Positions 4,482 to 31,355 of a stretch of 32,000 nt of DNA are shown in pieces. The translations under genes and the position numbers were made by a program. The notes beneath the pieces were generated by a model. It ran no database searches and was not told the origin of the DNA. It saw only the letters and a program-made list of their open reading frames with translations. Source of the stretch: an uncultured Chloroflexia bacterium (lineage in GTDB: Bacteria > Chloroflexota > Ktedonobacteria > Ktedonobacterales > JADMIN01); assembly GCA_963718915.1 (NCBI GenBank), contig CAVRAI010000007.1, positions 465,668 through 497,667 on the forward strand, written 5' to 3'. The stretch's first letter is position 1. Every line of letters starts with the position of its first letter.

Positions 4482-4563
4482 TATACGCGCTCGATTGATC
4501 ACTAGATCACTATCCGCATGAATACTCGCATGGCCGTCATTCGGATGATGGGGAGGGACAGAC

Positions 4564-6288
4564 ATGGGTCCGTTGATCACAGTGGTTCTGGTAGTTATCC
4601 TGATAGTGGTAGCCGTACTGCTCGTACTCAACCTGTATGGGCGTATGTTCCGCAAGGTCGGTCCGAACCAGGCGCTGATTGTCTATGGCGCGGGCGGCCA
4701 GCGTATTCTGACGGGCGGCGGCACGCTGGTCATTCCACTGGTGCAGGAGTCGAAGCTCTTCTCACTGGAACTGATGTCATTCGACGTTGCGCCGCAGCAG
4801 AACCTCTATACGAATCAGGGCGTCTCGGTGAAGGTGGAGGCGGTCACGCAGCTCAAAGTGCGCTCGGATCGCGAGAGCATTCTGACTGCCGCCGAGCAGT
4901 TCCTGAGCAAGACGCCGCAGGATCGCGAGGCGATGATCCGGCTGGTGATGGAAGGCCACCTGCGCGGCATCGTCGGCCTATTGACCGTCGAGCAGATCGT
5001 CAAAGAGCCGGAGATGGTCAGCGAAAAGATGCGTTCGACAAGTTCCGCCGACCTGGCGAAGATGGGCCTGGAGGTTGTCTCGTTCACGATCAAAGAAGTG
5101 CGCGACGAGAACGAATACATCTCCAACATGGGCCGACCAGAGATCGAGCGTATCAAGAAAGAGGCGAATATCGCCGCCGCGCTGGCCGCCCGCGATACGC
5201 AGATTCAGCAGGCGTCAGCCGCCCGTGAATCTGCGGTGGCCAAGTCGAGCGCTGACCAGGCTCGTGTCGAGGCGGAGGCAGCTTCGCAGACGAAACAGGC
5301 GGAATTCCAGCGTGACCTGGCCCTCAAGCGCGCCGAGTATGACGCCGAGGTGAAGAAGCAGGAAGTCATCGCCGATAAAGCAACCGAATTGCAGGCGCAG
5401 GTCGTCCAGCAACAGATCGTGGCTGAGACGGCGAAGGCGCAGGAGATCGACCGCACCGCGCAGATCAAGGTACAAGAGGCCGAGGGACAGCGCCGCAAGA
5501 TGGAGCTTGAGGCGACGATTATCAAAGGAGCCGAGGCGGAAAGGCAGCGTGTCACCGCGTTGGCGGATGCAGAACGGCAGCGCATGTCATTGGAAGCCGA
5601 TGGGCGTGCTGCGGCGTTACGCGCTCAGGCATCGGCGGAAGCTGAGGCGGCGAAGGTACGCGGCGCAGCAGATGCTGAGGCAGCACGGCTACGCGGCATG
5701 GCCGAGGCGGATGTCATCCGGGCAAAGGGCGAGGCGGAGGCGGAGGCGATGCGCGTCAAGGCAGCCGCCTACAATGAGTACAATCAGGCCGCTGTGCTCG
5801 ATAAAATCATCACCAATCTTCCGGAGGTGGTGCGTGCGATTGCCGAGCCGCTAGCGAAGGTGGACAAGATCAGCATCGTCTCGACCGGCGGCGCGAACGG
5901 CAGCAACCTTGGCGCCAGCCGCATAACAGGCGATGTGGTGAACATGCTGGCCCAGATGCCAGTAATTCTGGAGGCGCTCACGGGCGTCAAGATGAGCGAC
6001 CTGATGGCGCGCGTTCCGGGCTTGCGTACGGTAGAAGGCTCGACCGGCGATGGGGCGCCTGGCGGCGTGGATGGCGCGGCGGGTGCGAACGGCGCCAATG
6101 GAGCGAATGGGACCAGCGAGACGCCAGCTACGCCGACGGTTCAGCGGGTGAAGGTGCCCGCGCCAGAGACGGACGATACGCCTGCCCCGAGCGTTCCGGT
6201 CAGCTCAGATCACCCTTCCACGAACAATTCGGCCAGTGGCGCACCCGACGGGCCAGCGACCGGACCTCGCAAGCAGCCAATGCGCTAA
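4564..6288 (+). CDS. Flotillin-family SPFH/band-7 protein (FloT/YqiK-like)
   Basis: 574 aa with an N-terminal TM, an SPFH domain and a long Ala/Glu-rich coiled-coil (EAEAA... repeats). Low-complexity GANGANGANG / Pro-rich tail. RBS GGGAGGG upstream. Confidence 0.85.
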   Translation: MGPLITVVLVVILIVVAVLLVLNLYGRMFRKVGPNQALIVYGAGGQRILTGGGTLVIPLVQESKLFSLELMSFDVAPQQNLYTNQGVSVKVEAVTQLKVRSDRESILTAAEQFLSKTPQDREAMIRLVMEGHLRGIVGLLTVEQIVKEPEMVSEKMRSTSSADLAKMGLEVVSFTIKEVRDENEYISNMGRPEIERIKKEANIAAALAARDTQIQQASAARESAVAKSSADQARVEAEAASQTKQAEFQRDLALKRAEYDAEVKKQEVIADKATELQAQVVQQQIVAETAKAQEIDRTAQIKVQEAEGQRRKMELEATIIKGAEAERQRVTALADAERQRMSLEADGRAAALRAQASAEAEAAKVRGAADAEAARLRGMAEADVIRAKGEAEAEAMRVKAAAYNEYNQAAVLDKIITNLPEVVRAIAEPLAKVDKISIVSTGGANGSNLGASRITGDVVNMLAQMPVILEALTGVKMSDLMARVPGLRTVEGSTGDGAPGGVDGAAGANGANGANGTSETPATPTVQRVKVPAPETDDTPAPSVPVSSDHPSTNNSASGAPDGPATGPRKQPMR

Positions 6289-8501: not shown

Positions 8502-9641
8502 ATGTCTCCAGCACCAGCGGCCACCCCCAATCCACCTACGCCTGAATGGCTCACGCATGCGCTTCGCCTGGCGGGCGCGCTGACCTCTGGATACGTGACG
8601 GACGTCGATGATAGCGCTAACGACGCCTTCAACTCCACTGCCCTCCACCTGCGTCTCACCTATTCTCCTGATGCGCCGCCAGATATGCCATTGCGGCTGT
8701 TTTTTAAGCGCAATCTTCCGCAGGCATGGGCGATTCGCGCCGGGAAGCGAGAAGTCGCGTTCTATCAGATAGCAGCCACGATGGCAGACCGTCTGCCGAT
8801 GCTGGCGCCCTGTTATGGATCAGCGTACGACGACGCAAGTGGCGACTCCTGGCTGCTCTTGCGCGATGTCTCGGCGACACATACGCCGCCTGTCAACCGC
8901 GAGCAATTGATTGCGTGCAGCGGCGTCCCGCCCGATGAGCAACTCGCGGCGATTGTCGAGGCGTTGGCCGGCCTCCACGCCGCCTGGTGGGAGCATCCGG
9001 CGCTGGGAACAGACGCACTGCTCGTCAGCGAATGGTATCGCGACCGGGCTAGCTTCGAGGCGACGTTAGACCAGTTCACCGAGACCTGGGACGCATTTCA
9101 GCAGGCAGATGGCGAGACACCGTCTGCCTCAACAAGGGCGCTCTGCAACGAGGCATTGGCGGCCCTGCCGCACCTGTGGGAGCAGCGGCTGGCGGAGCGC
9201 ATAGCCGCGCGGCGGCAACTCACCATCAGCCATGGGGACTGCTATCTGAGCCAGTTCCTCTGTCCGCTTCCCGGCTCATCGGACGCCGCAACGTATCTCA
9301 TCGACTTTCAGGGCGCATGTGGTGACCTCCCCGCGATGGATCTCGTCTTCCTCTTCGCGACGTTCTGGACACCCCAGCAGCGCCACGAGGACCAGCGCGA
9401 GCAACGACTGCTGCGCGCCTATCACAACGCGCTTACGCGGTATGGCATCCCCGGCTATACCTGGGATGACCTGGTGAGCGACTATCGTATCGCGTTGGCC
9501 TTCATGCTCTTCTATCCGGTCTGGGATGCGTGCAACGGCTCCAGCGGGGACTACTGGGAGCCAAAGCTCCGCTGCCTCGCGAGAGCGGCGGATGACTGGC
9601 AGTGTCGCGCGCTCTTCGCCGACGTGATGTCGCACGCCTAA
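8502..9641 (+). CDS. Phosphotransferase-family kinase (APH / ecdysteroid-kinase-like)
   Basis: ATG 8502 after GGAAGGGA. Catalytic-loop-like [10 protein letters not shown] and metal-binding IDFQG...DL motifs. The usual Asn of HGDxxxxN is Gln here. Confidence 0.75.
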
Positions 9642-10081
9642 GCGTCGTCGCCCGCGCCGACAATCGCCTCGGCCTCGATCTCCACCAGCAGCGCCGAATC
9701 GATCAGGCGGCTCACCTCGATCATCGTCGACGCGGGCCGAATCTCGCGGAAGAATTCGCCGTGCGCCCTGCCGATGGCTTCCCAGTTAGCGATGTTGGTC
9801 ACATAGATGCGCGTGCGCACGACATCGCGCATACTCGCGCCCAACTCCGTCAGAGCGGCCTCGATGATGCGCAGCGCCTGTGTCGCCTGGGCAGCGGCGT
9901 CCCCTGGCCCGACGACCGCGCCACTGACGTCAACCCCGGTCGTACCCGCTACATGGATAACCTGACCGACCCGCACCGCGCGCGAGTACCCAACAATCTC
10001 CTCCCAGGGTCGCCCCGAACTGACGTTTTGTCGTGGCATATTTCCAGCGTCCCTTTCTGAGCTATTTGCGCTTCCGCTCAC
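9638..10081 (-). CDS. RidA/YjgF/L-PSP family protein
   Basis: Typical family C-terminus ...[48 protein letters not shown]. An alternative start is ATG 10039. The stop overlaps the convergent kinase stop. Confidence 0.85.
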
Positions 10082-10232
10082 CTATCATCCTATCATCTAT
10101 TGTCATCCGTCGTGACCATCCCGACTCTGCGGAGTACTGGTAAAAATCAGGCTGGAGAGCCTCAGAAGCAGCCTTTCACTCGCGTTGTGAGGCAATCAGG
10201 CAGGAATTTGCTCAAAAATTCGCCTGAAAGGC

Positions 10233-10261
10233 TTGTATCCCCTGAATCATCATGGTATACT
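10233..10261 (+). promoter_or_regulatory. Strong sigma70-type promoter with extended -10
   Basis: -35 TTGTAT (10233-10238), 17-bp spacer, TGg-TATACT (-10 at 10256-10261). Confidence 0.55.
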
Positions 10262-10262
10262 T

Positions 10263-10296
10263 GCGCGCGAAAGCATCCTGTATGTCTTTCGCGCGC
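10263..10296. promoter_or_regulatory. 11-bp perfect inverted repeat overlapping the predicted transcription start (operator or 5' stem-loop)
   Basis: GCGCGCGAAAG (10263-10273) / CTTTCGCGCGC (10286-10296) with a 12-nt spacer, immediately after the -10 element. Confidence 0.5.
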
Positions 10297-10479
10297 GGTC
10301 GTTTTCCGCGCGTGCGTCAGCGAACGCTAGCGATGGCCTGGCATGCATCGGCCTCTTTTCGGGACGATACCCGCGGCTTCTCTACAGCGTTTCCCCAGTA
10401 TTGGGTCTGCCCCATTGATATGGGGCCGTGTTGGTCCGGACGCTAGAGGCGTGGCCGGACCGGAAAGAGGGTTAGAATT

Positions 10480-10821
10480 TTGGCCACCGATCAGACACTC
10501 CGATGCCGCGACTGCGGTCGTGACTTCGTGTTCACGGCGGGCGAGCAGGAGTTTTATGCCAGCAAAGGGCTGACACACACTCCCGCGCGTTGCCCGGAGT
10601 GCCGCACGGCGCGTAAATCGTCCATGTCCGGCGGATATGGCGGCGAGCGTGCTCCCCGTCAGATGTACACTGCCGTCTGCTCGAATTGCGGCGGTGAGGC
10701 GCGCGTGCCCTTCCAGCCGCGCGGCGACAAGCCGGTTTATTGCAGCGATTGTTACGCCCAGATGGGCGGGGGCGCCCGTGGGGGCGCGCGCAGCGGCGGT
10801 GGCTACAGCACCGGCTGGTAG
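10480..10821 (+). CDS. CxxC-x17-CxxC zinc-ribbon protein with Gly-rich tail
   Basis: TTG start after GAAAGAGGG. Two units, CRDCG..x17..CPEC and CSNCG..x17..CSDC. A clean intrinsic terminator follows. Confidence 0.8.
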   Translation: MATDQTLRCRDCGRDFVFTAGEQEFYASKGLTHTPARCPECRTARKSSMSGGYGGERAPRQMYTAVCSNCGGEARVPFQPRGDKPVYCSDCYAQMGGGARGGARSGGGYSTGW

Positions 10822-10850
10822 TTCATCGCATCACTCGCACAACGCTGGAG

Positions 10851-10881
10851 GCGCTCGATTTTCAGATCGGGCGCTTTTTTT
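10851..10881 (+). terminator. Rho-independent terminator
   Basis: Stem GCGCTCGAT (10851-10859) / ATCGGGCGC (10866-10874) with one G-U pair, 6-nt loop, then TTTTTTT (10875-10881). Confidence 0.75.
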
Positions 10882-10934
10882 CTCGTATATCGCATTTCGT
10901 CCTCATCGGACATGCACTGGTCACTGGAATTTTC

Positions 10935-11789
10935 ATGCTCTCTTCAGCGATTCCTTTCTCCGAACGCTATCGGCTGGTCGTCGTAGATGTGGATGGCACC
11001 CTGCTTGATACCCAGCATCAGCTTCCACAGCGTGTCGCCGCCGCTATCCACGCAACGCGGCAACATGGCCTCGCTGTGGCGCTGGCCACGGGTAAGATGC
11101 TCCGCTCGGTTCGCCCATTGATCGAAGCAATGGACCTGCGCGGGCCACAGATTACGCTCAACGGCGCGGCGCTCGTGCTCGCCGAGACGGGCGAGCCGCT
11201 GGTCTATCATCCGCTACGTCAGGAAGATCGGCGTGTCGCGATTGAGCTGACACGCGCATCTGCCCCGGACGTGCTCATCACGCACTTTATGCTGGATACC
11301 ATCTTGGTCGATCAGCCGGATCATCCGCTGCTGCCGGTCTTGCTCTCGTATGGCGAGAAGCAGATTACGGCCGTCCCCTCGCTGCTGGCCGACGATCTGC
11401 CACCCGCCGCCAAGATTCTGCTTGTAGGCACGCATGAACAACTCGGCAACCTGCGGCGCGTCGTCACACCAGTGCTGGAGCCGCGCGTCATCGTCACCAC
11501 CACCGCGCCTGATTTTCTTGAGTTCTTCGACCCGGCGGCGGGCAAAGGCAACGGACTGGCGGCGCTACTCGACGTCTTGAAGCTGCCGCATGATGCCGTC
11601 ATTGCCATCGGCGATGGCGAGAACGATTTGCCACTGTTTGCGCAGGCCGGGCTGTCCGTCGCGATGGGCAACGCCAGCGCATCTGTTCAGCAGGCGGCCG
11701 ACCTAGTGATCGGCAGCAACGATGCAGCGGGTGTCGCCGACTTTCTGGACGACCTGCTACAAGCGCGCATGACGCACGCAGGCGACTGA
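10935..11789 (+). CDS. Cof-type HAD-IIB family hydrolase (sugar-phosphatase-like)
   Basis: VVDVDGTLLD (motif I) and GDGENDLPLF (motif IV). The ORF-track start at 10740 overlaps the zinc-ribbon gene and terminator, so ATG 10935 is preferred. Confidence 0.85.
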   Translation: MLSSAIPFSERYRLVVVDVDGTLLDTQHQLPQRVAAAIHATRQHGLAVALATGKMLRSVRPLIEAMDLRGPQITLNGAALVLAETGEPLVYHPLRQEDRRVAIELTRASAPDVLITHFMLDTILVDQPDHPLLPVLLSYGEKQITAVPSLLADDLPPAAKILLVGTHEQLGNLRRVVTPVLEPRVIVTTTAPDFLEFFDPAAGKGNGLAALLDVLKLPHDAVIAIGDGENDLPLFAQAGLSVAMGNASASVQQAADLVIGSNDAAGVADFLDDLLQARMTHAGD

Positions 11790-11828
11790 GGGATTTTCCC
11801 GCTTCGGGCGGCGGCCCTCTCCCCGTAA

Positions 11829-23953: not shown

Positions 23954-24883
23954 TTACTGCTGAATATCAGGATCGAGGGTGCGCGGCGCCTGAGGCAGCG
24001 GCGTGGTTGGTGGCTGCGGTTGCCCAAACGGCTCGGAGATCGCCGGTGGCGGCGTGCCCGAAGTCGGTGCGGAAGCTGGTTTCGCTGGAGGATTGCCGTT
24101 GGGTGCGATCCGATGGGATGCCGCCGTTAGTAACTCGCGTAGCGGCTCGATGAGATCAATGGGCAGGGGGAAAATAACCGTTGAATTCTTTTCCGCCGCA
24201 ATCTCCGTCAGCGTCTGCAGATAGCGCAACTGGAGCGCCGCTGGCTCGGTAGAGATCAGATGGGCCGCATCGGCGAGCGTCTGCGCCGCCTGGTATTCGC
24301 CTTGCGCCAGCAGCACCTTGGCCCGCTTCTCGCGCTCGGCCTCCGCCTGTTTCGCCATTGCGCGCTGCATCGTCTGTGGCAGCTCGACGTCTTTGATCTC
24401 AACCGTGGTCACTTTGATTCCCCAGCGCTCCGTATGCTCATCAATGATCTGCTGCACGCGTGATTGATTTCTTCGCGCTTGGCCAGAAGTTCATCCAGTT
24501 CTGACTGGCCCATAACGTTGCGCAGCGTCGTCTGGGCAATCTGCACGGTCGCGCGGTAGTAGTCCAGCACATTGTTGACGGCCTCGTTGGGAGTTGACCA
24601 CATAGAAGTACACGACCGCACTGACCTTCACCGTCACATTATCGCGCGTGACGCCTTCTTGCGGCGGTAACTCAATGGTGACGATACGCAGGTCGATCTT
24701 GCGCATTGTACTGATAAACGGCGGGACCCAGAAGACGCCTGGACCTTTCGCTCCACGCAGCCGGCCAAGCACAAAGATGACACCGCGCTCGTACTGATTC
24801 ACCACTCGCAGCCCCGCCAGAAGGAACAGCAGGAGCAAAACCACAATGATAGCGCCCGCTACACTTAATGTAACTGGATCCAC
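23954..24883 (-). pseudogene. Stomatin/slipin-type SPFH (band-7) protein, interrupted by 2 frameshifts
   Basis: Three pieces in three frames join into one SPFH protein: 24883-~24595 (GTG start, TM, ...[10 protein letters not shown]), ~24590-~24460 ([43 protein letters not shown]) and ~24457-23954 ([15 protein letters not shown]...[11 protein letters not shown]...LQLRYLQTL...). Confidence 0.8.
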
Positions 24884-24916
24884 CTCGTCCCCTCGTTTCT
24901 GTTATCACGTCCGCCG

Positions 24917-26317
24917 TTACTTATGACGACGTGACACTCCCACCACATCCGAAGTTGGCTCAACCAGGGCTTTTAGTCCCTCCACGCGCACCACCCGAAC
25001 CGACGCGCCCGCCTCGATGGGCGGCGCATCAACCTGCGTCAGACGAGCGCTCCAATCCCTCCCATGACACGCACGCGGCCCTCTGGCGCCAGCGATGTTA
25101 GCACCGTCGCCTGCTGGCCAACCAGTCCCGCGCTGCCAGTGCGCACCGGCCAGCGCTGCGAGCGGATCACGAATTGCAGCACGATGAGCGCGATCAGGCC
25201 GACGCCAATTACCACCCCGCCGATGATCACTGGACTGAGTGGTTGCGTGCCCCGGTCCACACCAGTGTCAAAGAAGATAAACGAGCCGAGCGCCAGGCTG
25301 ACCAGCGCCCCCACCGAGAGAACGCCATGCGTCGGCACGCGCACGTCTATCCCCAGCAGCACAATCGCCAGCAGCATCAGCGCCAGCCCCGCCCAGTTGG
25401 GGTCAGCGTCCCCGCGCCCAGCAGGAAGAGCACCAGCGCAATCGCGCCGATGGTTCCGGGCACAATGGCTCCGGGGTGTGCCAGTTCGAGGTAGATACAG
25501 ACCGCCGCGACGATGAACACCAGGAAGAGGACGGTGGGATCGAGGAAAAATCCTGCACCTGATCGGCGAACGTCGGTTCCAGCACCGTCACCGGCAGCCC
25601 CGCGACCTGCAGCAAGACAGTCTTGCCGCTGAACATCACCACCGATGTGTCGTCGAGCTGGTTGAGCAGATCATCGCGGGAGGTGGCGCGGAGGTTGATC
25701 AGGCCGTTATCGAGCGCCTCCTCGTCGGTGAAAGAGGCGGCATTAGTCACCGTCTGCTCCGCCGGGGCTATCGTGCGATGATATGCCTTCTGCACCGAAC
25801 GAACCATCGCCAGCAGGTCATTCTTGACCTTGGCATCCAGCGTTGAGGGCAGGTTATCGCCCGCGCTATCCACCGGGCTGGCCGCGCCAATACGGGTGCC
25901 GGGCGCCATCGCGATAATCGGTGCGGAGTAGGCGATCAGCGCGCCAGCCGAGGCCGCTCTCCCGCCCGCGGGGGTAACATAGACGGCGACAGGTACCGGA
26001 CTGGCCAGAATCGCCTGTGAAATAGCCTTCATGGAGTCAAGATCGCCGCCGGGCGTATCCATCTCGATGATGAGCAGCGCCGCCCCATCGTCATGCGCCG
26101 TCTGTATCGCGCCAGTCAGGAAGCGCGCCGACGCGGTATCTACCTCCTGATCGAAGGCGACCACATCGACGTGAGGGCCATTGGCGAGCGCCGTGGGCGC
26201 GCCACCAACCAGCGCCGCCACCGCCAGCGCCACAGCGCAGACGCAAATCAGCGTCAGGGACAGCGCGATGCCGCCAACGATCCATCCGCTTCGCGCAGGG
26301 AAGGATGCCACGCGCAT
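24917..26317 (-). pseudogene. NfeD-family membrane-bound ClpP-class serine protease, interrupted by 3 frameshifts
   Basis: ATG 26317 after a perfect AAGGAGG. The protease domain (..LIIEMDTPGGDL..GGRAASAGALI..) is in frame 1. TM block FLDPTVLFLVFIV...LFLLGAG is in frame 2. TM block DPNWAGLALMLLAIV...RVRVMGGI is in frame 0. The OB-fold tail WSARLTQVDAPPIEAGASVRVVRVEGLKALV is back in frame 1 and ends at 24917. Confidence 0.8.
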
Positions 26318-26399
26318 AGTAAGCCTCCTTACCCAAAACCAGCCGCTCTGCCTTCTTCGCCACATTCCATAACACAGCTCTGCTGATGGCGCTAGCCTG

Positions 26400-26428
26400 A
26401 ATATAGACCTACAGCTACATGCCGTCAA
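26400..26428 (-). promoter_or_regulatory. Near-consensus promoter of the NfeD-SPFH operon, TTGACG-17 bp-TATATT
   Basis: Read on the minus strand. -35 at 26423-26428 and -10 at 26400-26405. About 75 nt upstream of ATG 26317. Confidence 0.5.
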
Positions 26429-26720
26429 GCGGCGAAACATTCGGCCTCAATGCGAGTACCACGAGCATGTACACGACAATTGTTGCCGGGTTCATAATCT
26501 CGGCGCTTATCACTTCCTTATATGTTGAATCCAGCAACCAGCAAAGATTCCCATAGGTATCGCCTGGAGTAACCAGTCTCATAAGCAAGGACGCTTCTCA
26601 GATGCGCAAATTACTGGTCGTGTGCATGACATGCGTCGTGATGCCGAACTCTTCGAGACGCTCGCCGAAAAATGGAACAGCCAGAACCGCACGGCCCCTC
26701 GCTGTTGAGCCAGATCCCGT

Positions 26721-28523
26721 TCAGCAAGTCGTGTCGATATCCAGCGCATTGGCATCGCTGGCGGACTGCTCTACGCTCAAGCGCTTGTAGCGGTTGAAAT
26801 CGGCGATGATCCGCTCGGCGATGTCGCGGCTCTGGTGAAACCCTGGGCGAATCTGGACGGTGTAGGGCTTGCTCGACCCGATCCCGCTATTGGCAAGCGT
26901 GACGCCGCTGAAGGCGTCAGACGCCGTGATCGTCACCGTGCTCAGGGACTCGTAGGGATGCTCCGAGAGGCGCGCGGAATTGAAAAAGGTGATATAGCCT
27001 TCCGGCACGGTGATGATAGTGTCTGGATAGCGTAACCGGCGGCGCATAAAGAGCAGGTTCGGCACGCCAATCCCAAACAGCAGCACGCCGGCGATGAACA
27101 GGGGATAGAGATTCCCAATCGCCAGCGCAAACAGGATGCCAAACGCCGCAACGATCAGCAGAATAAGCGTCGAATAGATGAAACGCGCTGGCAGACTTGC
27201 CCGGTAGACCGTGCCATCGGGCGGAGTAATCCCACGAAGCGCCTGCGCCATCACCAGCGTGGAGCTTCGCGGCAGACGTCCGCCGGGCAGCGCGCCGAAC
27301 ATCGCCGCCGGATGCGCGCCCGCCTGATCGAGCGCCTCGGCCAGGTTCAGGACGCCAAGCAAGAGGTTGTCGCGGAGGTCGCTGCGCGGGCACTGGCGAA
27401 GCTCGGATGGAGGCTGGCGGGTCGTGCGAATCGCGGCGACGAGTACCGGCTTGCCAGCTTTCAGGGCATGCTGATATTCGTTCCTGACGGCTGCCGACCG
27501 GAGCGCGGCTGGCGAGAGCGCGACGACCAGCGCGGCGCATTGATCTATCGCCTGGCCCACCTGCGCCGACCAGGCCTGCCCGGCCCGCAGATTGCTTCGA
27601 TCCACCCAGACGTTGTACCCCGCCTGCTGCAGGCTCAGCTCAAGCCGGTCAATGATGCTGGCGTCTTTGCGCGAGTAGCTGATAAAGAGCAGGGGAGCCG
27701 CCGCAACCGTGGGCGCCAGGCCTGGTTCTCCAGACAGATAGCGCGCGACGTATGCCTGGTATTGCGCGAGCGCCTGCTGCCCCAGAATCCCCTCGCCCGG
27801 AAACTTGCTCAGCGTCATTGCAACGAATGGTCGCCCGTTTCTGGGGTCCACCTTCAGATGAACGTCACTCGTGCGCGCCTGCGCAATCGGGATGTCTGTG
27901 GTCGCGTCGCGGAACGCCGCCGAGACTGCCCCGCCCGTTTTGGTCGTCACGATAAAGCCATCCGGCGTCAATATCACCATCGGACTGTTCTTCAGCGAAC
28001 GGAGCGCGGTGGGGCTGTATTTGATATAGAGCTGATAGATGATGTACAGGGCTGGCGCCACGACGAGCAAATTTCGGCCTGTGGCAAAGTACGTCAGAAT
28101 GGTAAGCACGACGGTGATCGTCGCCCCATAGATCGTCCAGCGCGAAAGCCGCCGACCGGCGCGAACCGGAAGCCGACTCACATACCATGCCGGAGGCGTG
28201 ATGCCGGAACGCGCGCGCGCCAGCACAACCTCGGCATCAAGATCAGGTGGCGTCGCAATGGGGTAACGGGCGATACCGAGCGTATCGAGCGCGATCAGCA
28301 GCGCCGCCCAGCCCGCCTGCTCGCCCGCGGAAAAGTCAATCGCCTGGAGATGGCTCACATCGGCAGGCAGATCGTTGGCCGACGAGACGATCACTGGAAT
28401 GACCTGCTGGTTGTGGGCCAGCGCATACTGATAATCCGCCGTCACCTCGGCGGAGCGCATGCTGGCGCGTGAAACGACGACAAGGACGACCTGGCAGGCA
28501 GTCGATATCGCGCTGTCTTTCAT
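26721..28523 (-). CDS. TIR-domain membrane protein, main ORF: (rest of TIR1)-2TM-PH-like-TIR2-2TM-PH-like
   Basis: TIR2 has LLFISYSRKDASIIDRL...NVWVDRSNLRAGQ...ALVVALSPAALRSAAVRNEYQHAL (about 27426-27695). Two hydrophobic hairpins are each followed by a bPH/YdbS-like segment (ILTPDGFIVT... and ITVPEGYITF...). The two halves share ARSGITPPAWYVSRLPVR versus ALRGITPPDGTVYRASLPAR. Confidence 0.8.
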   Translation of the reverse strand: MKDSAISTACQVVLVVVSRASMRSAEVTADYQYALAHNQQVIPVIVSSANDLPADVSHLQAIDFSAGEQAGWAALLIALDTLGIARYPIATPPDLDAEVVLARARSGITPPAWYVSRLPVRAGRRLSRWTIYGATITVVLTILTYFATGRNLLVVAPALYIIYQLYIKYSPTALRSLKNSPMVILTPDGFIVTTKTGGAVSAAFRDATTDIPIAQARTSDVHLKVDPRNGRPFVAMTLSKFPGEGILGQQALAQYQAYVARYLSGEPGLAPTVAAAPLLFISYSRKDASIIDRLELSLQQAGYNVWVDRSNLRAGQAWSAQVGQAIDQCAALVVALSPAALRSAAVRNEYQHALKAGKPVLVAAIRTTRQPPSELRQCPRSDLRDNLLLGVLNLAEALDQAGAHPAAMFGALPGGRLPRSSTLVMAQALRGITPPDGTVYRASLPARFIYSTLILLIVAAFGILFALAIGNLYPLFIAGVLLFGIGVPNLLFMRRRLRYPDTIITVPEGYITFFNSARLSEHPYESLSTVTITASDAFSGVTLANSGIGSSKPYTVQIRPGFHQSRDIAERIIADFNRYKRLSVEQSASDANALDIDTTC

Positions 28524-28542
28524 CGCGCGTCGCTGGCCCGCT

Positions 28543-28662
28543 CAGATCGCCGCCTTCGTGGATCGCCAAACCGCGTGATCGCAGGCGCTCGCACAGACTA
28601 TCGACAAACGGGCGATCCTGGCCCGAAGCGCTCAGATAGAGTTGCGGTGGACTGTTCAGCAT
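28543..28662 (-). other. N-terminal part of TIR1, in a different frame from the 26721..28523 ORF (frameshift near 28541-28545)
   Basis: ATG 28662, 8 nt after AAGGA, encodes MLNSPPQLYLSASGQDRPFVDSLCERLRSRGLAIHEGGDL. After a 1-nt shift it continues as (S)AGQRRAMKDSAISTACQVVLVVVS. This aligns with TIR2 DRSNLRAGQAWSAQVGQAIDQCAALVVALS. Confidence 0.7.
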
Positions 28663-28974
28663 CGGTGGCATCCTTTTTAACACCTGATGGCGAGACGACG
28701 GCAAAGGCCCGGCGATTATCTCTATTGTAACCGATAGCTACCAGGCGTGCCCCACATGACCGTGGGATCGTTGCGCTGGATTGCATCATGGCGCGGTTGA
28801 TTCGCCTGAAATGACGCTGGCGGATCGGATGGGCTTAAGTCGCGTAGGCAGCGCCGCGTGGCCCGCTGTATACTGTTGTAGGCGTGAACTGTCTGCAACA
28901 GCGTGGCCCGCGGAGACCACCGCTCACTGGCGAGCGGGGCTGAGGCTGCGCTTGAATAGTCCGAGGAGGACGGC

Positions 28975-30404
28975 GTGGCTACAGGACAAACAGAGTTCGA
29001 CGTGCTGGTGATCGGCACGGGCGTCGGCGGCTATCCGGCGGCGATTCGCGCGGCGCAACTGGGCGCGCGCGTGGGCATCGTCGAGAAGCAGTACATCGGC
29101 GGCACCTGCCTCAACGTCGGCTGCATCCCATCGAAGGCGCTGCTACACGTCGCCCATCTCTACGCGACCTTCGACGAGATGGGTCAGATGGGCATCGTGG
29201 CGAGCAAACCCACAATCGACATGGGCGTTGCGGTCGCCTATAAAGAGAAGGTTGTCAAGCAGTTGACTGGTGGCGTTGGCCAACTGCTCAAGGCCAACGG
29301 CGTCACCATCTTCGAGGGGACGGCTGAGATGCAGTCGCCGACGCAGGTGCGTGTCACCCTCAAGGATGGCTCAGTCCAGGATCTGCGCACCAGCAAGCTC
29401 ATTCTGGCCAACGGCTCGAAGGTGGCCCGCCCGCCGTTCCCCGGCATCGACGGGCGCAATGTCATCTTCAGCGATGATGCGTTGACCCTGTCGTCGGTGC
29501 CATCCAGCCTTGTTTGCATCGGCGGGGGTGTCATCGCCGTCGAGCTGGCGTGCATGCTCAACGCCTTTGGTACCGAGGTGACCATCGTCGAGATGCTGCC
29601 CGCGATCATCGCCAACGAAGACGAGGAGACCAGGAATGCGCTGGCCCGGTCGCTGACGAAGCGCGGGGTGAAGATCGTCACGGGCGCGAAGGTCGAGTCT
29701 ATCGAGGACGCGGATGGCAAGAAGCGCGTGACGGCGACGACGAGCGACGGCAAGGCGACCTTCGACGGCGAGTATGTGCTGGTGGCGGTGGGCCGCCAGG
29801 CGAATCCGGTTGGGCTGGATGCGCTGGTGAAGGCTGGCCTGAAGATGGAGCGCGGCTGCGTCGTGGCCAACAAGAAGATGGAGACGAATCTGCCGGGCGT
29901 CTATGCCGTCGGCGATCTGGTCGGGCGAACCTGGCTGGCGCACGTGGCGGAGACCGAGGGCGAGGTCGCGGTGAGAACGCCACCGGCCATGAGGCGCAGA
30001 TGGACTACAACGTCATCCCGCGCCCAATCTTCACCTTCCCGGAGATTGCCTCGGTCGGCCTGACGGAGCAGCAGGCGCGCGAGCGCAACGCCAACATCAA
30101 GGTGGGCAAGTTCCCGTGGGCGGCCAATGGCAAGGCGCTGGCGTCGAACGAGGCCGAGGGCTTCACCAAGGTCATCATCGGCGAGTATGGCGAGATTCTG
30201 GGCGCGACCATCTTCGGGCCGGACGCCACCAATCTGATTACGGAATACTCGCTGGCGATGCGCGCTGAACTGACAGTCGACGAGATCATGGCGACCGTCC
30301 ATCCGCACCCGACCTACAGCGAGGCGCTCCGCGAAGCAGTGCTCGCCGCAGAGGGCCGCCCGATCCACATCTACCAGCGGTCGGCTGCCGCCGCGCGCCG
30401 GTAA
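28975..30404 (+). pseudogene. lpdA: Dihydrolipoyl dehydrogenase (E3), single frameshift near 29968-29975 (or sequencing error)
   Basis: GTG 28975 after GAGGAGGA. FAD motif VIGTGVGGY and redox centre GGTCLNVGCIPSK. The frame changes after ..AETEGEVAV. The C-terminal dimerisation domain (ENATGHEAQMDYNVIPRPIFTFPEIASVGLTE...HPHPTYSEAL) continues in the 29514..30404 frame. GTGAG looks like GTGGAG minus one G. Confidence 0.85.
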
Positions 30405-30555
30405 GAAGGAAGGCGGCTACTCGACCGTGAAAGGCCGGATACCATTACGGAGAAGGGCTTGAAAGCCGCCAGGGTCTGCATATGTAGTTGACGTTACTCC
30501 GACCGCGCGTTGTGGCGGCCAGAGGCAGACGTAGCATAAATGCTACGGCGTTTCC

Positions 30556-31355
30556 TCAACCACAGCTACGGCTCCGGCGAATGGGCGTACGTCGTAAGGC
30601 GCGGTGGGGAGCCTCACTCCGTTCGGCTGCCAAGGCCTCCGATACGGCCGCCCAGACCCAGAACTCTAATCTGGAGCCTGCGAAGGCAAACTTCGCGGCG
30701 GAGCGGAGCGAGGCCCCTACTCCCGCGTTCACGAGCCAAGAATCTGCCCGTATTCTCGTGAAGAACGTAGCAGCGTCGGTCTGGGCGCGCTCCATGTTCT
30801 GCCACTCGTGATCGAGGATGGCATAGTGGAGCATGTCCCACCAGCCATCTCCCGCCCACTCGACCTCGCGCAGGCGGCCTTCATATGTCATGCCCAGCCG
30901 CTCCATCACCCGCGCGGAGGCGGTATTCGCGGGATGGCACTCGGCGAAGATGCGGTGGAGGCGCAGCCTGGTAAAGCCCAGCCGTAGCAGGGCCGCGCCC
31001 GCCTCGGTGGCATAGCCCTGACCCCACCAGGCGCGGTGCAGCGTGTAGCCCAGTTCCGCCTGCCAGCGTTTCTGATCCCCGCCCAATACAGGCCGCCAAA
31101 ACCGATCAACTCGTTCCGGGTGGTATGGACGAATGCGAATGGCCGGGCGCGTGGGGGGCGCTCCTGCTCCCAATCGCGCAGCATCTCGATCAGGTCGCGG
31201 GTCTCCTGCTCGGAGAGCGGCGCGCCTGAGATGTAACGCTGCACGTCGGCGTCGCTGGTGAAGGCATGAATCGCGGGCCAGTCCGCCGGATCCAGTGGGC
31301 GTAATGTGAGACGTGGCGTTATGAGCGGCGCCATTGGTAGAAACATGCCCCACAT
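30556..31355 (-). pseudogene. RimJ/RimL-type GNAT acetyltransferase, single frameshift near 31078-31092 and an aberrant long C-terminal read-through
   Basis: N-terminus (ITPRLTLRPLDPADWPAIHAFTSD...NELIGFGGLY) is in the 30906..31355 frame. The core (QAELGYTLHRAWWGQGYATEA...ECHPANTASARVMERLGMTYEG) is in the 30556..31392 frame. About 75 extra residues after ..DHEW are translated from repeat-like DNA. Confidence 0.7.

Follow-up and report, generated by a model that had tools for sequence, protein, structure and literature searches.

A tandemly duplicated TIR and membrane-hairpin protein of Ktedonobacterales with one canonical and one degenerate TIR domain

The gene and its parts

A stretch of 32,000 nucleotides from contig CAVRAI010000007.1 of an uncultured Chloroflexia bacterium (the window) was analysed for a gene on its minus strand that encodes two TIR domains and four hydrophobic helices in one chain. 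The host of the gene is a soil bacterium of the Ktedonobacterales (Chloroflexota). Each TIR domain is followed by a membrane module, made up of a linker, two transmembrane (TM) helices and a PH-like domain. The reading frame is interrupted by one extra base in the window as given, and residue numbers below refer to the product of 646 amino acids (aa) that is obtained when this base is removed. Secondary structure was taken from an AlphaFold2 (AF2) model where indicated. The parts of the gene are as follows.

26721-28662, minus strand: whole gene, 646 aa once the base at 28500 is removed; stop codon 26721-26723, start ATG 28660-28662.
28500, minus strand: one surplus base, read as T on the coding and A on the plus strand, which shifts the frame within TIR1 and is probably an artefact of consensus or assembly.
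28278-28647, minus strand: TIR1 (residues 6-128), degenerate; YLSASGQD replaces FISYSRKD, WVDR is absent, and Asp76 (28434-28436) lies at the position of the catalytic Glu.
28149-28247, minus strand: linker 1 (residues 139-171); helix 143-152, GITPPAWYVSR, short strands and an Arg-rich end before TM1 (AF2).
28017-28148, minus strand: TM hairpin 1 (residues 172-215); helices 174-193 and 198-215, loop TGRN, weakly hydrophobic.
27726-28016, minus strand: PH-like domain 1 (residues 216-312); strands from MVILTPDGF, C-terminal helix 292-309 (AF2).
27321-27704, minus strand: TIR2 (residues 320-447), canonical; FISYSRKD, WVDRSNLRAGQAW, Glu395 at the catalytic position (27477-27479).
27192-27275, minus strand: linker 2 (residues 463-490); helix, GITPPDGTVYRASL motif and short strand (AF2; aligns with linker 1).
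27039-27191, minus strand: TM hairpin 2 (residues 491-541); helices 492-515 and 519-544, loop IGN, strongly hydrophobic, followed by RRRLRYPD.
26724-27038, minus strand: PH-like domain 2 (residues 542-646); six strands and a long C-terminal helix, with a disordered tail after about residue 636.

The order along the protein is TIR1, linker, two TM helices, PH-like domain, TIR2, linker, two TM helices, PH-like domain. The halves were aligned with each other using residues 1-323 and 324-649 of a first, 649-aa correction of the frame. They matched over 246 residues at 26% identity (BLASTP E=9e-11), a stretch that spans the TIR, linker and TM helices, and the two PH-like domains align within one module profile (A3). 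This similarity is far above chance and the tandem duplication is real, as stated in the initial annotation, a reading of the letters that had described two consecutive copies of one module. The strings quoted there were all found in the protein: the linkers GITPPAWYVSRL and GITPPDGTVYRASLPA, the PH-like starts VILTPDGFIV and TIITVPEGYI, FISYSRKD and VRNEY in TIR2, and YLSASGQD and VTADY in TIR1. The full-chain AF2 model, built on a 22-sequence family alignment, had a mean predicted local distance difference test score (pLDDT) of 81.9 and a predicted TM-score (pTM) of 0.77.

A canonical and a degenerate TIR domain

Both copies were compared separately with Pfam TIR_2 (PF13676, cut-off 28 bits), giving 60.3 bits (E=3.3e-16) for TIR1 and 77.2 bits (E=1.9e-21) for TIR2; the whole protein matched the same model in two stretches (E=2.7e-35). 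Both adopt an alternating beta-alpha fold in the AF2 model, with a pLDDT of about 87-93 for TIR1. The best Foldseek matches in the PDB, listed without a split between TIR1 and TIR2, were the NADase TIR domains of SPARTA TIR-APAZ and SARM1 (8spo, 8qlp, 7anw and others, E about 1e-5). MyD88 and a B. cereus TIR were also matched, and target-normalised TM-scores reached 0.75 for isolated TIR chains. The profile and structure comparisons that had been proposed as a check for two TIR domains thus recovered both, each copy passing TIR_2 and showing the TIR fold in the model.

In TIR2 the Glu at the catalytic position, E395, is present in 22/22 close relatives. Further residues of TIR2 that are invariant in this 22-sequence alignment are F326, S328, Y329, R331, D333, W352-V353-D354-R355, G361-Q362, W364, R388-S389 and, next to the Glu itself, Y396 (E395-Y396). 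The corresponding position of TIR1 is an almost invariant Asp in the same alignment, and the FISY and WVDR motifs are gone as well.

The contrast between the two copies extends to distant relatives. Among divergent proteins with the doubled architecture, one TIR always carries F[ILV]S[YH]..., WVDR and VRxEY, and the other is without these motifs and has D, E, Q, A, K or H at the Glu position. This pattern of one active-type and one degenerate domain is found across about 18 divergent clusters at 50% identity, one of them with the order reversed. That one is P0053 (690 aa), the only reversed doubled member, in which the N-terminal TIR is canonical (FISHARVN, WIDR, VQREY) and the second degenerate. 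In relatives with a single TIR followed by a module the Glu is mostly kept; P0077 is degenerate. The initial annotation had called TIR2 canonical on account of its Glu and TIR1 diverged on account of its Asp, and the relatives preserve that distinction, with P0053 as the inverted case.

Selection was estimated from the ratio of nonsynonymous to synonymous substitution rates (dN/dS) between the window and the intact gene of a related Ktedonobacterales metagenome-assembled genome (MAG), L001. The ratio was 0.17 overall, 0.24 for TIR1, 0.13 for module 1, 0.10 for TIR2 and 0.20 for module 2, so that TIR2 has the lowest value of the parts. Ratios against the distant L002, L088, L090 and L092 were discarded because dS was saturated or nearly so. 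By these sequence comparisons TIR1 is degenerate yet under purifying selection. The combination of lost motifs and continued constraint is as expected of a partner domain that is non-catalytic and functional.

The linker-2TM-PH-like module

The module was modelled on its own (residues 460-630, from an alignment of both module types) with a pLDDT of 85.4. The model shows one helix and a short strand, then a pair of long helices, a set of six strands and a final helix. Its top Foldseek matches in the PDB were the bacterial PH domains 3dcx and 3hsa, at a modest E of about 3e-3 and a probability of 1.0. Below these, among the matches listed, nearly all were PH, PTB, FERM-C or FACT PH-like folds. 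In BFVD, a viral library, a phage 'Bacterial PH domain protein' ranked third. The PH-like assignment is therefore supported at the level of the predicted fold, with modest scores.

Sequence profiles gave no corresponding match. No bPH family was matched by the whole protein in Pfam, or by the isolated PH segments at E up to 10. The best bPH profile was bPH_7, which reached a non-significant E=0.024 in 2/30 module segments. None of 35 stand-alone modules matched any bPH profile, and a search of the module profile against PDB sequences returned no match. The likeness to the YdbS/YdbT-type bPH_2 proteins that had been drawn at first therefore holds for the fold and for the layout of two TM helices followed by a PH domain, and fails at the level of sequence profiles. 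Two other families were considered and rejected. SLATT_3 reached E=0.25 in 1/30 module segments, and what follows the TM helices is rich in beta strands and not helical. The STM3941 family (NCBIfam NF041635) gave 13.8 bits against a cut-off of 40 (E=0.042, residues 500-566). The motif G..PP.W.V.R is kept in both modules of the protein and in the family of stand-alone modules.

Four hydrophobic helices are present in the AF2 model (174-193, 198-215, 492-515 and 519-544). The maximum Kyte-Doolittle hydropathy in a 19-residue window is about 1.6 in hairpin 1 and 2.2-2.8 in hairpin 2. Hairpin 1 (28017-28148) is rich in Tyr and Thr and of marginal hydropathy; it might insert conditionally or be re-entrant. 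Both hairpins are flanked on both sides by Arg/Lys-rich segments, and their connecting loops are 4-5 residues long. Because of these flanks (positive-inside rule) and short loops, both TIR domains and both PH-like domains are predicted to be cytoplasmic, with the hairpins entering and leaving the membrane from the cytoplasm. The structural interpretation given in the initial annotation is sound; its description of the PH-like domains as 'sensor' modules is speculative, and so is a role in defence.

Family and distribution

A HMMER search with the module profile against 1.84 billion representative proteins yielded 83 proteins at E of 1e-3 or better. These stand for clusters at 50% identity and were rescanned with TIR and module profiles derived from the family. 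The doubled order, TIR-module-TIR-module, was found in about 18 clusters, which answers the search for the same domain order in other genomes that had been suggested with the initial annotation. Four proteins (P0062, P0077, P0079 and P0096) have a single TIR followed by a module, one has the order module-TIR, about six clusters consist of two modules in tandem, and about 35 clusters are single stand-alone modules of 190-210 aa. Homology of these stand-alone proteins extends across the full module, with its N-terminal helix and the G..PP.W.V.R strand (hhalign probability 99.6%, E=2e-23). Within P0052-P0108 the stand-alone modules conserve G..PP.W.V.R, LVLxPxGF and DxRFG.

One further protein, P0067 (2214 aa, from a Ktedonobacteraceae MAG), has an N-terminal TIR_2 domain, NB-ARC, DUF7779, about 17 TPR and three C-terminal modules. 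It would be a membrane-anchored STAND NTPase, and the presence of the module on a TIR-NB-ARC-TPR protein of this type ties the module to proteins of the conflict or cell-death type.

All members with a named organism belong to the Ktedonobacterales or Ktedonobacteraceae, save one MAG labelled just 'uncultured Chloroflexia'. A scan of contigs with the full-length alignment gave three true family members; the other 77 loci had a TIR only, without the module. The stand-alone and tandem-module proteins match no Pfam or NCBIfam family. Neither the architecture nor the module has a model in Pfam, NCBIfam or PADLOC, or a description in the literature searched, and the early impression that the architecture was undescribed agrees with this outcome. 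The protein is best filed as a combination of a TIR effector with a 2TM-PH-like membrane module, both of known kinds, the combination being new.

Genomic neighbourhood

Relatives as distant as about 68% identity share the order lpdA, TIR gene, NfeD, Band_7 (SPFH). For members with 50% identity or less the neighbours are unrelated, among them genes for alcohol dehydrogenase/ETF, histidine phosphatase, glutamine synthetase, proline dehydrogenase/MFS and glycosyltransferases. A functional link to NfeD and SPFH was set aside on the ground that the neighbourhood is not retained at 50% identity or below. The other genes of the window are metabolic or membrane genes (aminotransferase, SDR, flotillin, kinase, HAD hydrolase, MFS, amidase).

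PADLOC, suggested as a check in the initial annotation, was run on 10 other open reading frames (ORFs) of the window and returned no defence model. The description there of the gene as self-contained fits the lack of any partner gene conserved across divergent members. Since the neighbours of divergent members are unrelated and the PADLOC result is empty, the gene is regarded as self-contained and outside a defence island.

Several minor features were seen in the neighbourhoods viewed. A GmrSD_C (type IV restriction-like) fragment lies at the contig end of L001 (20496-20724), about 8.6 kb downstream of the TIR gene, and is the only defence-type domain in any of them. The stand-alone module gene P0055 (L093, 8001-8630) adjoins a divergently transcribed regulator of the MerR family, with no TIR gene nearby. 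The window holds a second SPFH protein at 4564-6288, flotillin-like (Band_7 and Flot, 574 aa), 20 kb from the NfeD/Band_7 pair; a 236-aa ORF at 4518-5228 overlaps this gene and suggests that the start of the flotillin-like gene is uncertain.

Comparison with known systems

The closest structural matches of the model, SPARTA TIR-APAZ and SARM1, share with TIR2 the Glu at the catalytic position. In both systems the BB loop of one TIR completes the active site of another (PMC10899771), an arrangement that the covalent pair of a degenerate and an active-type domain could copy. Unlike SPARTA and SARM1, the present protein has two TIR domains per chain with a hairpin and a PH-like domain between them, and one of the two is permanently degenerate. 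It also differs in having no Argonaute, ARM/SAM or other sensor domain, and its TIR activity is predicted only.

The module shares its layout, two TM helices and then a PH-like domain, with the YdbS/YdbT-type bPH_2/DUF304, DUF1200 and DUF2244 families (PMC2817789). It differs from them in its extra N-terminal helix and G..PP.W.V.R strand, in its fusion to TIR domains and in its confinement, among named members, to Ktedonobacteria.

Thoeris systems with TM effectors (type II 2TM-Macro, type V ThsF, type VII SLATT; bioRxiv 10.64898/2025.12.03.692087) likewise bring together a TIR and a small membrane module with a cytoplasmic globular domain. Thoeris, however, is an operon of two or more genes in defence islands, and here there is one gene with no conserved neighbour. 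No ThsA or ThsB model was matched above its cut-off (NCBIfam ThcB4 34.8 bits against 220; PADLOC ThsB E=0.025), and a match to Pfam ThsB_TIR at 28.9 bits reflects general TIR similarity only.

A membrane anchor is also present in Dictyostelium TirC, where the tether curbs toxic auto-activation (PMC13142454). TirC is eukaryotic and has one N-terminal helix and one TIR, with no PH-like domain and no duplication. Two TIR domains in one polypeptide, one of them diverged as here, occur in mollusc Tolls (PMC4929906) and in Dictyostelium TirE (PMC13142454). In those receptor or RCC1-repeat proteins the TIR domains are directly adjacent; the present protein is bacterial and each of its TIR domains has a membrane module of its own.

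Proposed mechanism and alternatives

The protein may be a stand-alone, membrane-tethered TIR NADase in which TIR1 serves as the non-catalytic partner of TIR2. This reading is put forward tentatively, with a probability somewhat short of even. Enzymatic TIR domains become active through head-to-tail contacts, by which the BB loop of one domain enters the other and forms a composite NAD+ site (PMC10899771). TIR2 would be the NAD+-consuming enzyme, and TIR1 a built-in partner in the role that the second TIR plays in the head-to-tail composite site of SPARTA and SARM1. The hairpins, together with the PH-like domains, would either lock the TIR pair in an arrangement without activity or promote its oligomerisation. 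The shift of the TIR domains into an active arrangement would then follow from a change in the PH-like domains or at the membrane, and active TIR2 would cause growth arrest or cell death through NAD+ depletion or a nucleotide signal. The role could be defence, or regulated cell death as is common in multicellular bacteria. Precedents exist for the membrane part of this scheme. Some known bacterial families combine a pair of TM helices with a PHb domain inside the cell, and rings of PHb domains have led to a proposal of oligomerisation at the membrane (PMC2817789). Removal of the N-terminal TM helix of Dictyostelium TirC unleashes toxicity in the amoeba, so that in its own host this TIR NADase is held in check by a membrane tether (PMC13142454).

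Several points weigh against a membrane-tethered NADase. Many NADase TIR domains carry a Trp four residues before the catalytic Glu, and TIR2 has Ala or Val there instead. No defence-island or mobile-element context surrounds the gene, and the plain synteny with lpdA, NfeD and SPFH fits a vertically inherited housekeeping gene as well. With the weakly hydrophobic helices of module 1, a topology with four TM helices is uncertain. Two other MAG assemblies (L009 and L005, described below) also carry a broken orthologue, which could reflect recurrent inactivation and not sequencing error.

An alternative with the same parts is a single-chain, Thoeris-like system, in which TIR2 would make a signal derived from ADP-ribose, the PH-like domains would bind it and the hairpins, oligomerised by way of the PH-like domains, would open a pore. 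The 2TM-PH module would in that case be the effector that kills, and the TIR the source of the signal. Small TM proteins to which nucleotides made by the TIR bind, and which breach the membrane, are frequent among Thoeris effectors (bioRxiv 10.64898/2025.12.03.692087). A role as pore or transporter, with oligomerisation through PHb rings, was proposed for 2TM-PHb proteins by Xu et al. (PMC2817789). The 2TM-PH module also occurs independently (about 35 clusters) and in tandem, as would an effector module, and its fusion to a TIR suggests a functional link. The scheme is nevertheless unlikely: the stand-alone module P0055 has no TIR gene nearby, the module matches neither SLATT nor any known Thoeris effector model, a degenerate TIR1 would be superfluous, and the upstream trigger of TIR2 is left unexplained if one chain holds both sensor and effector.

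The two TIR domains might instead be protein-protein interaction domains of a non-enzymatic membrane scaffold with a lineage-specific housekeeping or developmental function, perhaps together with NfeD/SPFH membrane microdomains. Scaffolding TIR domains are known (PMC10899771). The gene order around lpdA, NfeD and Band_7 that is kept down to about 68% identity, a vertical-looking inheritance in a core-like region without defence genes, and the missing Trp before the Glu of TIR2 would all suit such a scaffold. The NfeD/SPFH neighbourhood, however, is lost at 50% identity or below and so looks like a matter of synteny and not of a functional link. Catalysis is favoured by the fact that one TIR of each double, like the TIR of most single-TIR relatives, strictly keeps the Glu and the full motif set, and purifying selection is strongest on TIR2. 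A scaffold is on this evidence distinctly improbable.

A further reading, given an equally small chance, takes the linker-2TM-PH-like unit as a Ktedonobacteria-specific monitor of membrane state that would gate the pseudo-TIR/TIR pair, making the gene a one-gene immune or cell-death switch. Within that membrane-surveillance reading the gene duplication would hard-wire an obligatory TIR-TIR asymmetry, a corollary held at the same low level of confidence.

TIR enzymes turn on only once at least two TIR domains are stacked head to tail. If the membrane-tethered NADase with a non-catalytic partner is correct, the fusion of a dead and a live TIR would represent this asymmetric pair in minimal form, fixed genetically. 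As each TIR is pinned to the membrane by its own module, the protein could show how tethering controls TIR activation. A second outcome is the definition of a membrane module that lacks annotation and comprises about 83 clusters at 50% identity; it occurs alone, doubled, with TIR domains and on a STAND NTPase. Ktedonobacteria have a complex multicellular development and almost no experimental genetics. For now the protein is an architectural curiosity of uncultured bacteria; a pseudo-TIR/TIR pair apparently hard-wired on separate membrane anchors is unusual, testable and of moderate interest.

Reading frame and consensus quality

Without correction, the minus strand carries a 600-aa ORF at 26721-28523 and, upstream in a different frame, a 122-aa ORF at 28336-28704 whose product starts ...MLNSPPQLYLSASGQDRPFVDSLCERLRSRGLAIHEGGDLSGPATRDERQRDID. 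The corrected 646-aa product starts MLNSPP at 28662. The lesion was placed by comparison with homologues, 27 of which in the protein database are full-length or near and all read ...GPATRDERQRDID-A/T-CQVVLVVVS without interruption. Since they run uninterrupted through ...GPATRDERQRDID-A-CQVVL, the lesion was assigned to 28500. There the window has ATCGAC-T-GCCTGCC and L001 has ATCGAT-GCCTGCC, and both wobble alleles (GAC and GAT) of the Asp54 codon appear to have been retained in the window. With the base removed the protein aligns colinearly and gap-free with the intact 646-aa P0001, with 18 substitutions (97% identity).

The initial annotation had put the frame correction near 28541-28545 and the length at about 647 aa. 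The homologues move it by about 40 bases, to the single extra base at 28500 (GAC-T-GCC), and the length to 646 aa. A correction at the earlier site (one G dropped from GGG near 28540) was rejected: it opens a 649-aa frame, and residues 45-57 of that frame contradict every homologue.

The frames of the surrounding genes were examined by tblastn between the window and the intact genes of L001. Six frame switches were found in four genes between 24.9 and 31.3 kb, three in NfeD and one each in GNAT, lpdA and the TIR gene, the last at 28499/28498. Band_7 is disrupted too, which makes five consecutive broken genes (Band_7, NfeD, TIR gene, lpdA and GNAT) at 24023-31346 of the window; all five are whole in L001. 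Genes at 18.4-23.9 kb show no frame disruption, and the TIR gene has no second lesion besides 28500. This distribution suggests a locally low-quality consensus at 24023-31346, possibly from long reads over a polymorphic region. Because four adjacent genes are also broken, the homologues are intact and the gene is under purifying selection, the frameshift at 28500 is judged to be, with high probability, an error of assembly or consensus and not the mark of a pseudogene.

A true pseudogene that arose by the one-base insertion, perhaps through counter-selection of a toxic TIR gene, is very unlikely: the frame is broken in the sequence as given and the orthologues in L009 (GGA to TGA) and L005 (frameshift) are broken as well, but the lesion is single, the remainder is 97% identical and gap-free to an intact protein and under purifying selection, four other adjacent genes are broken, including the housekeeping lpdA (three by frame switches, plus Band_7), and the insertion retains both synonymous alleles (GAC/GAT), as a consensus error typically does where a site is polymorphic. 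The breaks in L009 and L005 leave a small probability for recurrent inactivation. In L009 (MFD05502.bin) the in-frame TGA lies at 9588-9590, within TM4 (LLF*IGVP), where relatives have GGA. In L005 the frameshifted orthologue occupies 9841-11795, and lpdA of that assembly is split too.

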